A stretch of DNA of 64,000 bases from a virus. The notes below the pieces were generated by a model, which saw only the letters and a program-made list of their open reading frames with translations, searched no databases and was not told where the DNA came from. The stretch is from the IMG/VR virus record IMGVR_UViG_3300032298_000540, positions 1-64,000 of that record, one strand, 5' to 3'. The translations under genes and the position numbers were made by a program. Positions 2,250-15,730 of the stretch are shown here, piece after piece (the stretch's first letter is position 1; every line of letters starts with the position of its first letter).

Positions 2250-2462
2250 GTAGTTCTCTGGAAGCTCTACAAGCTCCGCAAGAACTTGGTGTTGCAGCTC
2301 GCGTTCGCCAGCAATCTTAAGACCCCATGCGGCGATCTCAAGTGCTTGCTCACGGCTTAGTAGCTGCGAGTGGCCTGACTCCATCCAATACTGGATGGTG
2401 TCGTAGGCTTTAGCCGCTAGCTCTTCCCTGGTAGGAAGTGTAGCTGTAGTAGCGTTGGTCAC
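2244..2462 (-). CDS. Hypothetical early protein (GTG start)
   Basis: In frame with ORF 2244-2528; GGAG Shine-Dalgarno 6 nt before the GTG at 2462. Confidence 0.7.
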   Translation of the reverse strand: MTNATTATLPTREELAAKAYDTIQYWMESGHSQLLSREQALEIAAWGLKIAGERELQHQVLAELVELPENYG

Positions 2463-2475
2463 GGTGTTCTCCGTG

Positions 2476-2552
2476 TGTGCGGTACCCATCTCCGCTGGAG
2501 GTAATTGTTGCCGGTGGGTTTGCACCACCGGACTCGCTTAGACGAATCAACT
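2476..2552 (-). ncRNA. Structured RNA repeat copy 2
   Basis: Minus strand GUUG-AUUCG(UCUAAG)CGAGU-CCGGUGG(UGCAAAC)CCACCGG-CAAC-AAUUACCUCCAGCGGAGAUGGGUACCGC. Confidence 0.65.
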
Positions 2553-2683
2553 TACAACCCAACATTCGTTTGAGAACGAAAGCATGCGATTCTAGCACGA
2601 CCTAATCTATAAACGTTAAGAAAACGTTAAGATCATAGGTTATACTAGGTAGGCGCGGGCCCTTACGGTTACTTACGCCTATC

Positions 2684-2798
2684 AACGTAGTAAACTAAGG
2701 TAACTTCCTAACGTAGTAAGATCTCTTAACCACTTAACGTAGTCAGATCTCTTAACTTACTAACGGAGTTAACCTTCCCTTACTCTCAACAACGTAGT
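2684..2798. repeat. Iteron-like direct repeats AACG(T/G)AGT with 26-bp period
   Basis: Copies at 2684, 2710, 2736, 2762 and 2791; two extend to AACGTAGT(A/C)AGATCTCTTAAC. Confidence 0.75.
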
Positions 2799-3004
2799 CA
2801 GGAAACACCTCACCTCACCAACACGCTCGCTACATGGCGCATCTCACACAACATATACACACCCATACCCCCTATTCTTTTTTTTCTTCCCACATTCCAC
2901 TTCGCGTGGGTGGGTGGAGAACAGTAACGAAATTTTTACCCTAATTAGGCCCCTTTATAGTGTTTTTAGTATGTAAAATCCCTAATTAGCCCAAAAATAC
3001 AGAC

Positions 3005-3028
3005 AAAAAAACCGGGTTTAAGCCCGGT
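3005..3028 (-). terminator. Rho-independent terminator
   Basis: Minus strand ACCGGG-CTTAAA-CCCGGT followed by a T-tract, downstream of 3049-3276. Confidence 0.65.
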
Positions 3029-3048
3029 GGTTTAACTTTTATTTGAAA

Positions 3049-3276
3049 TCAGTCAACAATAGGATCTGTCGCCTGTTGTCTTTTATATTCTAACGCAAGA
3101 GCCTTAGATTTTCTAAATTGATCTTCTTCTGGTATCGCATAAGCAAGCCCTTTTTTCGCTTCTGTTACAAAATCACGTACTTCAAATGCATCAGCACCGG
3201 TACTAGCAATATTTAATGCTTTTTTTTGGATGCTTTGCAACCCTTTGATTCTTGCTAGCCTGGCTTCTGGGTTCAT
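3049..3276 (-). CDS. Hypothetical protein
   Basis: 75-aa ORF followed by terminator. Confidence 0.65.
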   Translation of the reverse strand: MNPEARLARIKGLQSIQKKALNIASTGADAFEVRDFVTEAKKGLAYAIPEEDQFRKSKALALEYKRQQATDPIVD

Positions 3277-3366
3277 TTATGGTTAAACTTGTTTTATTAT
3301 TTTACTATAACCTAGATTATCAACATTAGAATATTTACAGAACAAAAATAAAGACAATAAATCTAA

Positions 3367-4980
3367 ATGGCTCTTTCTCCAACTGATTTCTACGCATATA
3401 GTCGTGCTACTGGAACACCATTCCCAGAAGATCCAGAAGAAAGGGCACAGATGGCACCTGAGGTGCTTGAATTCAAGCGTAATCAGCTTAAAGCACCAGA
3501 ACAAGGTCCTAATTATGGCGCTATTGCAGGACTTACTGCTGCAGGATTAGGTCTTGCTGCTGGAGGACTAGGTTTATCTCGTTTATTTAGAAAAAGTGCT
3601 CCTCGAGCTACTGCTCAAAGTAATATAGATCTTGCTACAAGAGCATCTCAACCAGTTACAACAATTAGTAAAATAGATCTTCCTGTAGTACAACCGTCTA
3701 AAGTTGTAGTAGAACCTAAATCATTTACTAAAAATTATTTGGATGAAGTATTAGAAGAAGCAGATGCAAAAGTTGGTGCACTAACTGAATCAGAAAAGAC
3801 TATTGAATCCAAACCATTTAATTTAACGTATATTGAAACAACCGGAGCAAAAGCACCAGATCTTACATCAATACAACAATCTCAATTACCTGTGATTTCT
3901 GCACAGCAAAGAGCTGCTATTGAATCAGGAGAAGATCAAATAACAGGTCGAATAAAACATCGCTTACAACAAGATGAAGATTTAGATACAAGTCAAGTAG
4001 AAGTAATGGAAGGGATGGCACAGGAACAATATCGTATTGGCATGGAACAGAAAGATCCAATTGTTTCTTCACAAGAATTTGTAGATTTAGCAAAACAAGA
4101 AATGATTAATAGAAGGCAAGCAGTTCAAGCAAGTGGGTTACGTCCAGGTACAGAAAGATTTGAACGTGCTCTTGCACAATCTTTTGTAACTAAATCTATA
4201 CCAGGAGCAGAACCAGGAACTGTTAATTTTAGAAATTTGCAAGACTTAAATAAAATTGATATTTCATTACCTTCCACGATACGTAGAGCAGTTGATATTG
4301 TTGAAGAGACAGGTCCAGAAGAAGCTCTTGAACCAAAGAAATTACGCGCCGTATTGAACGTTGGTCCACTAGCAGAAATTACTACAACAGCAATGGGAGG
4401 TGCAATACGTGGTGCATCGCCGCTTTATCATGAAGCGTTACCTAAACAAAGTCAACGACAGATTTTTGGAACACCTGATGTTTTAGTGCGGGGAGCGCCT
4501 GATGAATTAACTTCTGATATACCAGGTAGACAGCGGTTATCTAGTGCGTTGTCTGCTGATATTCCTGCAGAAGAACTTTCTAAACAAGAAATTCAATATG
4601 GTTTTTTAAATGAAACTCCTATTGCAACACCTAAAGGAGGAAGCGCTGGTATAGGATTATATGGAATAGAGCCTAGATATGTTCCTGGTGCAATGAGTAA
4701 AGTTACAGGAGAGTATTCTGAAAAAGCAAGTCAAAGACCTAGTTATGTTCCTGGTTGGCTTTTAAGGCGAGAGGAAACTCCTTTTTCTAATGTTTCAAAT
4801 GAAGGGCTTCAACGAGCATTGGAAAAGTCAGGTTCAACGGGAGCACGTTCTATTACCAAAGAAATAGAACGACGCGAAAAAGGAAATAAAAGTTTAATAG
4901 TAAGTGAGGCATTACGTAGAGCTAAGATTGAAGGACGTGATCCACAAATGATTCTTAAACAATTAGGTATAGGTATTTAA
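3367..4980 (+). CDS. Hypothetical virion-associated protein
   Basis: 537 aa, first gene of rightward module, Gly/Ala hydrophobic segment near N-terminus. Confidence 0.75.
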   Translation: MALSPTDFYAYSRATGTPFPEDPEERAQMAPEVLEFKRNQLKAPEQGPNYGAIAGLTAAGLGLAAGGLGLSRLFRKSAPRATAQSNIDLATRASQPVTTISKIDLPVVQPSKVVVEPKSFTKNYLDEVLEEADAKVGALTESEKTIESKPFNLTYIETTGAKAPDLTSIQQSQLPVISAQQRAAIESGEDQITGRIKHRLQQDEDLDTSQVEVMEGMAQEQYRIGMEQKDPIVSSQEFVDLAKQEMINRRQAVQASGLRPGTERFERALAQSFVTKSIPGAEPGTVNFRNLQDLNKIDISLPSTIRRAVDIVEETGPEEALEPKKLRAVLNVGPLAEITTTAMGGAIRGASPLYHEALPKQSQRQIFGTPDVLVRGAPDELTSDIPGRQRLSSALSADIPAEELSKQEIQYGFLNETPIATPKGGSAGIGLYGIEPRYVPGAMSKVTGEYSEKASQRPSYVPGWLLRREETPFSNVSNEGLQRALEKSGSTGARSITKEIERREKGNKSLIVSEALRRAKIEGRDPQMILKQLGIGI

Positions 4981-12433: not shown

Positions 12434-15400
12434 ATGCCCTCATATTTACATCTTGCGTATCGACGCAACGCAAGGGCGGCTGCAAAAAACTACACAGTTA
12501 AACCAGCTGATAACCAAGAAGCAGTAAAAAAAGCTAGAGAAGATTTTAGTTTCTTTTGTGAATATGTTGCTAACAAACCACCAGCCTCTCATCACAAAGA
12601 CTGGCACGGACACTTTGTAACAGGTGAAGATAGCGTTTGTTTAAAGAGTATAGCCGGTCCTAATATTGATCTACTTGGTCCCCGCGGACCACTAGCTGTA
12701 TCTACACCGGTAGCTACTCCTAATGGATGGGTACCCATAGGCGAACTACAAGTTAGTGATATTGTTTTTTCTGAACACGGGCAATTAACTGAAGTAGTAG
12801 GTATTTCAGATTACGAAGAATCTCTTACATGGGAAGTCGTCTTTACTGATGGTTCTTCTGTTCGTTGTGATGACCAACACCTATGGAAGGTTCGACGAAT
12901 GGGAACAGACGGAAAAGGAGATTGGCGCAGCATGACGCTTAATGAAATACGTACACAAAAAACAGTAGGGATTAAAGGGAATGGTCGCCCTGGAGCACTG
13001 ACCCAAAGAGTTACTGCAACATGTGAGTCAGGAGAAACACCTTGGTTAGATAGTAGAGGTTATCCTCGTTATCAGATTCCTGTCACACAACCAGTTGAAT
13101 ATCCAGCAACAGAGCTTCCTCTTGATCCATATTTATTAGGGGCATTACTTGGTGATGGTTCTCTTAGTTCCAATAACCTTTCCTTATGTAGTGCAGATCC
13201 AGAGATTGTTGAACGTTGTTCCTTAGGATTACCAGAAGATTATCGTTTTAAAAAAGTAGCAAAATATGGATATAATATCTCACATGTTAAAGGGGTTCTT
13301 GCGGGAGGAAAACCAAGTGTTGTGCGAGAGATCCTAAAAACACTTGGGGTCTATGGTAAAACATCAATTGATAAGTTTATTCCTAAGTCTTATTTGACAG
13401 CATCGATACCTGATCGAGAAGCATTGTTACAAGGGCTGCTAGACACAGATGGTACTGTTGCATCTACAGGAGGGGTGTCTTTTTGTACAACATCTACAGC
13501 TCTTGTTAAAGATGTAACAGAACTAGTTCAATCCCTTGGAGGGATAGCAACACAACGTGCGTCACAATTAAATACATACCTAAACAAACATCAAGAGCGT
13601 GTACGTACGACAACACCATCAGTTACCTTAGGTATCAAATTACCAGATAGCATTAAACCTTTTCACTTACACCGTAAAGCCCAAAGATATTCTCCTTGCA
13701 CCAAGTATCTTCCTTGCCGCAGCATTAAAGATATTCGTCCATCAACAACAGAAAAAGTACGTTGTATTGAAGTAGCTGACACCTGTCATACTTTCTTAAC
13801 TAAAGATTATATTGTTAGTCATAATTCGGCAAAGTCAACGACCTTAGGTTTGTTTACTGCATGGGCTATTGGTGTACATACCACAGCTAAATTACCTTTA
13901 CAAATTCTTTATCTTTCTTATACTGTTGAAATTGCACGTCCTAAGTCAGCTGCAATTAAACGTATTATAGAAAGTCGTAAATATCAAGAAGTATTTCCTG
14001 CAGTAAGACTTCTTAAGAACGTAACAAGTAATGAATACTGGTCAGTGGACCATAAATTTGCAGGCATAGAAAGTATCGGAGACGAGATGTTTACTCTCTG
14101 TGCTGCAGGCTTAAAAGGCTCAGTGACATCTAAGCGTTCCCATCTTTGCCTGATAGGGGATACACTGGTGTTAACAAATCATGGCAACGTTCCAATTGCC
14201 ACTATTTATGCAAATCCTGACGACTACCAAATTGCTACCAGAAATCACACCACAGATCAAATTGAGTGGAGCAACGTGGCCGCAGTTACAAAACGTAATA
14301 CCAAAGGAATTATTAGCATTGAAACAGAATGTGGAAATAAGATTCAATGCACTCCCGAACATCCTTTCATTACGGCGGACGGAAGGCAAAAGAGGGCAGC
14401 AGATTTTAGTCCAGGGGAAACCATTGTCGGATTATCCAACAGGGGACAAGTTGACACATTTACTAATTCTTGCAAGAGATTGTTCAATTTGCGTTGGTTG
14501 CAACACCTCGGAACACAAATAGCTATTAAACAACGGGCAACTGAGAACCAATCTTTGTGTCCACCATATAGATCACAATCTTTCAAACAATACCCCACAA
14601 AATTTAATCACGTTGTGCAGGCAGTGCCATGTAGCACATCACCAGATAACAGACAAAGCTGGGAGGCCGTCACCATTTCTAGAGTTGAGTTCTTTAGCGA
14701 AAAAGAGGAGTTTGTCTATGACTTAGAAGTCAGTCATAGCAGTCATAATTTTATTGCTAATGGTTTAAATGTTTTGAATTGTTTAATTGACGACTGTATA
14801 AAATCTGCTACGGATATAGCTAACCCTGATATACGTAAGGCAATGCAAGATAACTGGAACGCAGTTATTTCCCCAACTATGTTTGAAGGTGGAAGAGCAA
14901 TATGTCTGGGCACCAGGTTTAGACATGACGATATACATGCCACTACATTTAATGAACAAAATAATTGGCGACAGATCGTATTGTCTGCAATTCAACAAGA
15001 TCCTAAAACAGGAGATGAACTTTCCTATTGGCCTGAAATGTGGTCACTTGAATACCTAAAGGAAAAAAAACGAACGGCACCTATTGCATTCTCTTTTCAG
15101 TACATGAATCAAATAGTCAGACAAGGTGAATTATCCCTGGCACCAGAACTAATTGTAAAAGCCGAGATAGCAACAGAATTTGATTCACTTGGAATAGGGG
15201 TTGATTTATCTGCTGGTATTAAAGAAAAGAATGACTACACCGTAATGGTTCTAGGTGGACGCATTGATGATCGTATCCATATTATTGATTACCGCAGGAT
15301 ACGGGCCATGGGTAATCTAGAAAAGCTAGATGAAATGAAAGAATTACTTAATGATTGGTCAATCATAGGAAAGGATGACAATGGGAATTACTTCCCAACC

Positions 15401-15730
15401 TTTTCTACTTGTGATGTTTGGTCAGAAGCCGTCCAGTATCAAGCCTCTCTCGAAGCCGACTTTAAGAGGATTTGCCTTAATGACGAAGGTCTGCACAACT
15501 TGATCTGGCACCCCGTCAAGGGCTTCCGTGCAGATAAGCTGGCGCGGTTTAGGGGGATTATAGGCATGTTTGAAGAACGAAAAATAATCTTTAATCGTTT
15601 TCGGAACTTCACTAATCTCTTCGAGGAACTCACAAATTTCGGCGTGAGTAGTCATGATGATTGTGTGGATGCGTTGGTATGGCTAGTAAATGGATTGGCC
15701 AAAAAAGGAAAGCTCCAATTTGATTACTAG
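12434..15730 (+). CDS. terL: Terminase large subunit with two inteins (about 508 aa after splicing)
   Basis: Spliced Walker A PRG|SAKST, Walker B region SHL|CLIDD, GTRF..DD coupling motif, RNase H-like nuclease GVDLS...DYT and HDDCVDAL. Confidence 0.95.
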   Translation: MPSYLHLAYRRNARAAAKNYTVKPADNQEAVKKAREDFSFFCEYVANKPPASHHKDWHGHFVTGEDSVCLKSIAGPNIDLLGPRGPLAVSTPVATPNGWVPIGELQVSDIVFSEHGQLTEVVGISDYEESLTWEVVFTDGSSVRCDDQHLWKVRRMGTDGKGDWRSMTLNEIRTQKTVGIKGNGRPGALTQRVTATCESGETPWLDSRGYPRYQIPVTQPVEYPATELPLDPYLLGALLGDGSLSSNNLSLCSADPEIVERCSLGLPEDYRFKKVAKYGYNISHVKGVLAGGKPSVVREILKTLGVYGKTSIDKFIPKSYLTASIPDREALLQGLLDTDGTVASTGGVSFCTTSTALVKDVTELVQSLGGIATQRASQLNTYLNKHQERVRTTTPSVTLGIKLPDSIKPFHLHRKAQRYSPCTKYLPCRSIKDIRPSTTEKVRCIEVADTCHTFLTKDYIVSHNSAKSTTLGLFTAWAIGVHTTAKLPLQILYLSYTVEIARPKSAAIKRIIESRKYQEVFPAVRLLKNVTSNEYWSVDHKFAGIESIGDEMFTLCAAGLKGSVTSKRSHLCLIGDTLVLTNHGNVPIATIYANPDDYQIATRNHTTDQIEWSNVAAVTKRNTKGIISIETECGNKIQCTPEHPFITADGRQKRAADFSPGETIVGLSNRGQVDTFTNSCKRLFNLRWLQHLGTQIAIKQRATENQSLCPPYRSQSFKQYPTKFNHVVQAVPCSTSPDNRQSWEAVTISRVEFFSEKEEFVYDLEVSHSSHNFIANGLNVLNCLIDDCIKSATDIANPDIRKAMQDNWNAVISPTMFEGGRAICLGTRFRHDDIHATTFNEQNNWRQIVLSAIQQDPKTGDELSYWPEMWSLEYLKEKKRTAPIAFSFQYMNQIVRQGELSLAPELIVKAEIATEFDSLGIGVDLSAGIKEKNDYTVMVLGGRIDDRIHIIDYRRIRAMGNLEKLDEMKELLNDWSIIGKDDNGNYFPTFSTCDVWSEAVQYQASLEADFKRICLNDEGLHNLIWHPVKGFRADKLARFRGIIGMFEERKIIFNRFRNFTNLFEELTNFGVSSHDDCVDALVWLVNGLAKKGKLQFDY
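12689..13825 (+). mobile_element. Class 3 intein (Pro1) with LAGLIDADG homing endonuclease, 379 aa
   Basis: Starts PLAVSTPVATPNGW; block B CDDQHLW; LLGALLGDGS and LLQGLLDTDG; block F VRCIEV; ends IVSHN before +1 Ser. Confidence 0.92.
14147..14779 (+). mobile_element. Class 1 intein, 211 aa, with no in-frame endonuclease
   Basis: Starts CLIGDTLV; block B CTPEHPF; block F VYDLEV..HNFIANG; ends VLN (Leu instead of penultimate His) before +1 Cys. Confidence 0.9.
14181..14726 (+). pseudogene. HNH endonuclease in the +1 frame inside intein 2, interrupted by TAG at 14520-14522
   Basis: +1 frame reads LILARDCSICVGCNTSEHK*LLNNGQLRTNLCVHHIDHNLSNNTPQNLITLCRQCHVAHH...MT*. Confidence 0.8.

Follow-up and report, generated by a model that had tools for sequence, protein, structure and literature searches.

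A phage terL intein that is probably a decayed, dual-coded mobile element

The large terminase subunit gene (terL) in a 64,000-nucleotide stretch of viral DNA (positions 1 to 64,000 of IMG/VR virus record IMGVR_UViG_3300032298_000540; the whole stretch is called the window here) contains two inteins, the second of which reads as an intein in the terL frame and as an HNH endonuclease in the overlapping +1 frame. We consider it probable, at roughly 85%, that this second intein (intein 2; positions 14147–14779, + strand) belongs to a family of mobile elements with dual coding and has itself decayed. In an intact element (337 amino acids (aa), 1011 nucleotides (nt)), the terL frame would encode a class-1 intein whose splicing halves are joined by ~210 unstructured residues, and which would excise itself from TerL post-translationally. 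The +1 frame of the same DNA would encode a protein of ~300 aa that combines a zinc-bound HNH nuclease with three CxxC...CxxC zinc ribbons and a small N-terminal domain; its translation would most likely start internally, in most lineages from the ATG of intein codon 21. Acting as a free-standing homing endonuclease, this protein would cut intein-free terL at or near SHL|C (a cleavage specificity that we infer), and repair of the cut allele would copy in the whole element. The window phage would have gained such an element, and the endonuclease would then have decayed through a 378-nt deletion of the zinc ribbons and a CAG-to-TAG change, with selection on the essential terL keeping stops out of the intein frame and preserving the splicing blocks.

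Two readings of one stretch of terL

In the list of open reading frames (ORFs) and their translations, terL is a single ORF of 1098 codons at 12434–15730 (+) that ends in a TAG stop and holds both inteins. Its product matches Pfam Terminase_6C and Intein_splicing, and the gene has 74% nucleotide identity to terL of Synechococcus phage S-EIVl. Intein 2 (211 aa) is inserted at KRSHL|CLIDD, directly ahead of the Walker B aspartates of TerL, with Cys1 at 14147–14149, Asn211 at 14777–14779, and Cys+1 at 14780. It scores 58.7 bits against Pfam Intein_splicing (cut-off 35.8), aligns with homologues of 337 aa, and has the features of a class 1 intein of the Hint fold, namely Cys1, a terminal Asn followed by Cys+1, and blocks A, B (TxxH), F, and G. 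Invariant in the intein alignment are C1, G4, D5, and T6, then T69-E71-H72 of block B, and, in the C-terminal splicing domain, VYDLE..H..HNFIANG...N. The intein frame contains no stop codon. Both the normal splicing blocks and the open frame had been described in an initial annotation made from the sequence alone, and both descriptions hold up.

The AlphaFold2 model of the window intein consists of two confident splicing halves (pLDDT, the predicted score in the local distance difference test, 76–92) and a 71-residue connector with pLDDT below 50. The N-terminal splicing domain comprises residues 1–98 (14147–14440, +; pLDDT 76–92), and the C-terminal splicing domain, with blocks F and G and the Asn end, comprises residues 170–211 (14654–14779, +; pLDDT 79–90). 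The connector, residues 99–169 (14441–14653, +), is the intein-frame reading of the HNH remnant; it is predicted to be a disordered linker, and in the homologues the corresponding region has an omega (ratio of nonsynonymous to synonymous rates) of ~1. Because terL is essential and the phage record is complete (76.9 kb, with terminal repeats), intein 2 is probably capable of splicing.

In the +1 frame, the remnant of the HNH ORF occupies 14208–14726 (+) when counted from the ATG at intein codon 21 (14208); an earlier ATG lies at 14181. From 14181 to the stop at 14724–14726 the frame is interrupted only by a TAG at 14520–14522, and the translation proved to be exactly as first transcribed. It includes ...ARDCSICVGC...LCVHHIDHN...NLITLCRQCHVAHH, within which translation, Pfam, and alignment delimit a remnant of the HNH catalytic core (RD-C..C ... 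CVHHIDHN ... NLITLCRQCHVAHH) at 14466–14642 (+). As evidence for an HNH nuclease, the window copy alone is suggestive and not conclusive. The initial annotation had expected an HNH profile to match the +1 frame; the remnant gives Pfam matches that lie below the thresholds (HNH_3, 20.7 bits against a cut-off of 24.8, E=3e-4; HNH, 19.2 bits against 21.4, E=1.4e-3), but the intact +1 ORF of S-EIVl lies above the HNH cut-off, at 24.0 bits against 21.4. Searched against PHROGs, the S-EIVl ORF matches 13–19 HNH families (best E=1e-10).

Homologous inteins at the same site

From the window alone, one broken +1 ORF could not be told apart from an in-frame HNH domain that two compensating frameshifts, or a sequencing or assembly error, had displaced in this one copy. 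We therefore turn to the homologues at this terL site. Besides S-EIVl, ten IMG/VR loci, 34 metagenome loci, and two contigs of metagenome-assembled genomes show the arrangement, with some contigs present in both collections. In total, 48 inteins have a length of exactly 1011 nt; 37 are unique, and 17 representatives have less than 97% nucleotide identity. In S-EIVl terL (KJ410740), a 337-aa intein occupies the same KRSHL|C site, and in its unbroken +1 ORF of 319 codons an N-terminal region is joined to three CxxC...CxxC zinc ribbons and to the HNH core that the window also has. All 48 homologues have inteins of 337 aa with a stop-free intein frame, and the surrounding terL frame has an open stretch of at least 846 codons where the contig spans the whole gene. 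Their +1 ORFs are 309–334 codons long, with the exception of locus L008, which has one nonsense codon; their +2 frames contain 20–29 stops. Every related intein that we recovered has its HNH in the +1 frame, none in frame with the intein. Within this terL intein family, the +1 arrangement is the rule, and selection in two frames maintains it.

These homologues bear directly on the idea of a copy-specific accident. All 48 carry the +1 HNH, as do the more distant loci L092, L098, Gordonia phage Clown, and Brucella phage Tb considered below; the homologues' ORFs are intact and show +1-phase wobble, and the separate Logan assembly of the probable source run matches the window sequence. A double frameshift or assembly artefact in this copy, which the initial annotation had offered as an alternative, is refuted by the intact +1 ORFs of the homologues, and we regard any accident of this kind as very improbable. 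It is a distinct question whether an ancient double frameshift gave rise to the family as a whole, which is conceivable.

A shorter, highly divergent element (32% identity; HNH ORF of 262–266 aa; fewer zinc ribbons) occupies the same site, there KRSHL|CFTG, in L046–L048, with the +1 arrangement kept. An S-EIVl-like sequence, P0008, has a called protein that starts in the HNH frame, crosses to that of the intein, and undergoes another shift within the extein. We considered it as an in-frame HNH–intein fusion and rejected it on account of the further frameshifts in the extein; it is probably a low-quality, error-rich, or broken sequence.

The protein encoded in the +1 frame was modelled from an alignment of 19 sequences (298 aa; mean pLDDT 78). 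Residues 12–190 have pLDDT values of 72–94, and this confident region includes the part written over the N-splicing domain. The top Foldseek matches in the PDB are Cas5-HNH, EcoKMcrA, ScoMcrA, Cap5, GVE2 HNH, and T4 endonuclease VII, with probabilities of 0.99–1.0 and weak E-values (best 3.7e-3), the latter being expected because the multi-domain model was searched whole. C221, C224, H245, H246, N258, C263, C266, and H270 are invariant in the 19 proteins. The catalytic HH..N..H is framed by CxxC...CxxC zinc ligands in a beta-beta-alpha fold, as in HNH (His-Me finger) endonucleases, and by Pfam, PHROGs, and modelled fold the +1 protein is predicted to be an HNH nuclease.

Selection in the two frames

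The 1011-nt alignment is gap-free, though three of its lineages are only 65–67% identical in nucleotide sequence. The most variable position changes phase along it, coinciding with the intein-frame wobble position in codons 1–40 and 311–337 and with the +1-frame wobble position in codons 41–310. By the Nei-Gojobori method, omega in the middle (codons 106–290) is 0.08–0.23 in the +1 frame and 0.7–1.2 in the intein frame, whereas at the ends (codons 1–30 and 315–337) it is mostly ~1 (0.26–1.55) in the +1 frame and 0–0.2 in the intein frame, values that are biased to the extent that the synonymous sites of one overlapping frame are constrained by the other. Codons ~41–105 show little variation at all three codon positions, so both frames appear constrained there. 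Within the overlap, these patterns show the endonuclease in the +1 frame to be under purifying selection, with selection on the intein reading relaxed.

Synonymous resampling addresses the open frames themselves. With the HNH protein held fixed, 16–19 stops were expected in the intein frame and, over 1500 trials, none was seen. With the N-splicing domain held fixed, 4.3–5.3 stops were expected in the +1 frame and zero were observed (P = 0.001–0.003 in each of the three lineages). Both frames are open far more than chance allows.

The initial annotation had proposed a dual-coded element, an intein with an overlapping +1 HNH, and had looked to same-site homologues for an intact HNH under purifying selection in both frames. 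The homologues confirm the proposal, in that all related inteins recovered carry the +1 HNH and that frame is under purifying selection. The expectation for the intein frame is borne out at the ends and not in mid-intein, where omega is ~1. As a formal null, the +1 ORF might be untranslated, with its conservation imposed at the nucleotide or RNA level. Nothing specific speaks for this view, and it seems scarcely credible given a three-base periodicity in +1 phase over ~270 codons, the low +1 omega in the middle of the element, the invariance of the Cys/His zinc ligands and catalytic residues, and the confident model of an HNH nuclease.

Decay of the window copy

The HNH ORF in the window is not intact, as it has lost its zinc-ribbon region in addition to carrying the TAG at 14520. 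The loss is an in-frame deletion of 378 nt (126 codons), which the earlier reading had overlooked. In the MAFFT alignment it covers columns 315–692, the whole region of the three zinc-ribbon motifs, and its junction lies at 14460–14463 (+). At that junction, contigs from other runs have 380 extra nt or read through into CLSCQGPKKQ, which is zinc-ribbon sequence. The closest full-length relative of the window intein, L002, has 97% aa identity to it in the N-terminal part. Where the window has the TAG (14520–14522, +), relatives have CAG, and the metagenomes of three other studies, that is, three independent runs, have C in place of T at position 14520. Intein-free alleles (precise, ...SHL-TTA|CLIDD...), full-length alleles, and CAG alleles are all present in the metagenomes of these three studies; lake metagenomes other than the source thus hold both the full form and the empty allele. 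The Logan contigs of the probable source run (X1), a separate assembly, give the same sequence as the window. The window copy is thus best described as a decayed derivative in which the zinc ribbons were deleted and CAG became TAG; neither lesion occurs in the relatives, and decay had been suspected from the outset.

We also considered whether the TAG, standing in place of CAG, might be recoded as Gln. This was rejected: terL itself ends in TAG, and no transfer RNA (tRNA) genes were found in the 64-kb window, hence no suppressor is encoded there, in agreement with the earlier statement that TAG is an ordinary stop in this DNA. L008 (3001–4011) is a second copy with decay, its single nonsense codon lying in the zinc-ribbon region of the +1 ORF. 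For annotation of the window, the practical consequence is a terL gene with two inteins, the second of which holds a dead endonuclease gene in its +1 frame.

Mobility of the element

We surveyed the insertion site in the 80 closest relatives of the TerL C-extein in IMG/VR. The site is empty in 75 and occupied in 5. Sixty-nine of the 80 are empty with Val at +1, six are empty with Cys at +1 (all with intein 1), and the five occupied loci have a full intein with an intact +1 ORF. The Val-type empty junction, KR[SA]HL|V[LI]IDD, occurs in L192–L260. An intein at Val+1 alleles could not be expected to splice without the +1 nucleophile, and such alleles may be closed to invasion, or the element may just never have entered them.

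Among the empty alleles, that of L182 is the most informative. Its terL is 99.1% identical to the window terL on both sides of the site and precisely lacks intein 2. The window and L182 differ at 17 positions upstream of the site, of which 10 fall within the final 37 nt before it (14110–14146, +), all 10 being synonymous; at 9 of the 10 the window agrees with intein-bearing L002. Under uniform scatter, the binomial chance that at least 10 of 17 differences would fall within 37 of 1713 nt is ~4e-13. The same variants of the tract are found on empty alleles in runs X5 and X6. Such a flanking tract is the pattern expected of gene conversion in homing, or of its reversal. With its sporadic distribution, precise empty sites, and flanking co-conversion-like tract, the element has the features of a mobile element.

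These data also bear on a different role for the nested HNH. The authors of the brucellaphage study speculated, citing Kala et al. 2014, that it is a terminase-associated packaging HNH and not a homing enzyme (PMC4422536). Its location within terL would fit such a role, and terminase-assisting HNH proteins are known (cited in PMC4422536). In our system, however, the HNH is dispensable: among the 80 closest relatives in TerL, 75 are without the entire intein, the site is vacant in a phage that is 99% identical, and the complete genome of the window phage, with its terminal repeats, has a broken copy. The sporadic distribution and the conversion tract, moreover, mark a mobile element. We therefore judge a packaging role quite unlikely.

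Start of translation and weighing of the evidence

Twelve of 15 lineages have an ATG at intein codon 21; the others, L030–L032, have GTG or TTG at codons 28–29. In every lineage the +1 frame is open from intein codons ~4–19 onward, and in some it is already open upstream of the intein. The +1 ORF would be translated separately, and the simplest and most likely reading of its expression is internal initiation at a candidate start codon.

Several observations weigh against reading intein 2 as a decayed dual-coded element. First, L030–L032 have ACA or ATA at codon 21 and nevertheless have an intact ORF, so that a start at this codon is not universal. Second, no Shine-Dalgarno-like motif is evident ahead of the codon-21 ATG in the start-region sequences of the lineages. 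Third, there is the bias in omega noted above. Fourth, the conversion may have run in either direction, so that the window lineage may have gained the element or L182 may have lost it. Finally, the deletion and the TAG are present only in the window assembly and in the Logan contigs of its probable source run X1, and in none of the independent samples.

The first two of these points, together with the early opening of the +1 frame, would fit programmed +1 frameshifting on terL, by which the HNH would be made as a fusion with the N-extein and the start of the intein. We consider this unlikely. The start-region sequences showed no obvious conserved slippery or stall motif, though no scan aimed at such motifs was made. 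Further, the codon-21 ATG is present in most lineages, and the remainder have the GTG or TTG codons just mentioned. In the L002 group, +1 stops at intein codons 2, 3, and 9 would leave only a narrow window for a shift, and in Brucella phage Tb the N-splicing domain has already ended where the HNH frame opens. As to the missing motif, it is commonly said of cyanobacterial genes that they have no Shine-Dalgarno sequence. Internal initiation within a dual-coded element thus remains the reading that we prefer.

A wider family of +1 HNH ORFs

A phmmer search of 1.8 billion cluster representatives returned 1207 relatives of the HNH protein at E<1e-3. Among the 150 matches listed, 68 of 147 remote ones terminate in what is the +1 "shadow" of block F and/or block G of an intein, recognized by the motifs SMTSKW... 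and ...SLQ..YS.TTA, which are VYDL..V and NF.A.G..VHN|C shifted by one base. In unrelated TerL types, the +1 arrangement was confirmed on the DNA of L092, L098, Gordonia phage Clown, and Brucella phage Tb. In tblastn searches, the HNH ORF of L098 matches 41 Brucella phage records (E=2e-14), Clown (E=1e-55), and S-EIVl (E=3e-19), in all cases under terL.

Individual members differ in size. L098, a phage contig rich in guanine and cytosine, has a +1 ORF of 493 codons (2323–3801) with extra zinc-ribbon repeats, within a terL of 1005 codons. In Clown (L180, NC_055867), an unannotated +1 HNH ORF of 380 codons (1689–2828) lies inside the annotated terL. Ralstonia phage RS-CA1 (PP316169) has a weaker tblastn match under terL at 2274–3002, a putative homologous +1 HNH. 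A scan of viral contigs with P0009 gave distant zinc-ribbon/HNH matches only and no close locus.

The phmmer relatives with shadow ends of blocks F and G lend support to a broader reading, toward which we lean only slightly: the +1 zinc-ribbon HNH and the intein would form one old, co-evolving, dual-coded module, a stable design shared across very different phage TerL families. Its range would take in the relatives of cyanophage S-EIVl, the Brucella, Gordonia, and Ralstonia phages, and many uncultured phages, which we hold to be marginally favored. With similar reserve, the arrangement would not be a brief stage that follows invasion by a free-standing endonuclease gene. For the cyanophage branch, it is on balance plausible that the intein's N-splicing domain shares its DNA with ~65 codons of a folded N-terminal domain in the nuclease.

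Relation to known systems

Out-of-frame intein endonucleases are a known, rarely recognized kind, and the window family is the cyanophage branch of it, not a new category. What is new is this branch, with its unusually deep overlap into the splicing domains. As cited in later work, out-of-frame or antisense intein endonucleases have been attributed to Gorbalenya 1998. An out-of-frame HNH in the TerL intein of brucellaphages was published in 2015 (Virol J, PMC4422536), and the record of Brucella phage Tb (NC_019446) has the terL note "intein present" and a nested HNH coding sequence in the +1 frame. The recent papers considered below on actinophage inteins, cyanobacterial dnaX, and the ShiLan domain make no mention of S-EIVl or cyanophage terL, and a full-text search gave no literature linking S-EIVl to an intein.

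The Brucella phages (Tb, Pr, and others) are the closest parallel. As in the cyanophage family, a class-1 intein sits directly before the Walker B [LIV]IDDP of TerL, and a sequence-homologous zinc-ribbon HNH ORF lies on the same strand in the +1 frame. The analogy is not exact because the TerL family is another one and the ORF is shorter (235 codons), opening after the N-splicing domain, whereas the +1 ORF of the cyanophage family extends into both splicing halves (codons ~21–318 of 337). Moreover, the Brucella phage copies are near-identical, so selection is not measurable there.

Other systems share single aspects of the design. In a cyanobacterial DnaX intein (Gorbalenya 1998, as cited in later work; bioRxiv 10.64898/2026.09.14.751524), the intein frame is disordered over an overlapping endonuclease ORF, omega has the same frame-dependent pattern, and full, mini, and empty alleles occur together in lake populations; there, however, the endonuclease is a LAGLIDADG enzyme in a +2 ORF of the cellular gene dnaX, in contrast to an HNH in the +1 frame of phage terL. 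The non-canonical inteins of actinobacteriophages (bioRxiv 10.1101/2025.01.02.630785) are likewise in phages, many of them in TerL, with the endonuclease in a separate frame or strand. Their classes are EndoVII-like in frame 3 and antisense LAGLIDADG and VSR-like, so the same-strand class is endonuclease VII-like, and HNH is reported only in frame. The authors of that study proposed that a mini-intein was invaded by a free-standing endonuclease gene; Clown appears in it only as the largest class-1 intein, at 385 aa. The ShiLan domain of a phage methylase (Genes 2025, PMC11855218) resembles our system in its out-of-frame HNH with flanking zinc fingers and in the open host frame, but its splicing domains are undetectable, whereas the splicing blocks of intein 2 are clear. 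Finally, canonical HNH inteins (Dalgaard 1997, as cited in later work) also combine an intein with an HNH homing nuclease, there a domain of the intein polypeptide; the cyanophage family has it in a reading frame of its own.

Gene callers and intein surveys work on the assumption that a strand is read in a single frame, and for this reason the endonuclease is unannotated in S-EIVl, Clown, and metagenomic phages. Inteins of this type are then filed as decaying or odd. The family offers an unusually clean natural data set, with two proteins in 1011 nt and no indel over ~35% nucleotide divergence. It should be useful for study of the homing cycle, as empty, active (predicted), and decayed alleles coexist in lakes, and for the question of how intein–endonuclease partnerships originate.

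The first intein of terL

Intein 1 of the window terL lies at 12689–13825 and interrupts the Walker A motif (PRG|SAKST). It is sporadic, being absent from S-EIVl and L002–L011 and present in L182, L184–L186, L188, L191, L039, and L040. It carries a LAGLIDADG domain (Pfam LAGLIDADG_3, Hom_end), and, with Pro as its first residue, HLW in block B, VRCIEV in block F, and an SHN|S end, it looks like a class-3-type intein.

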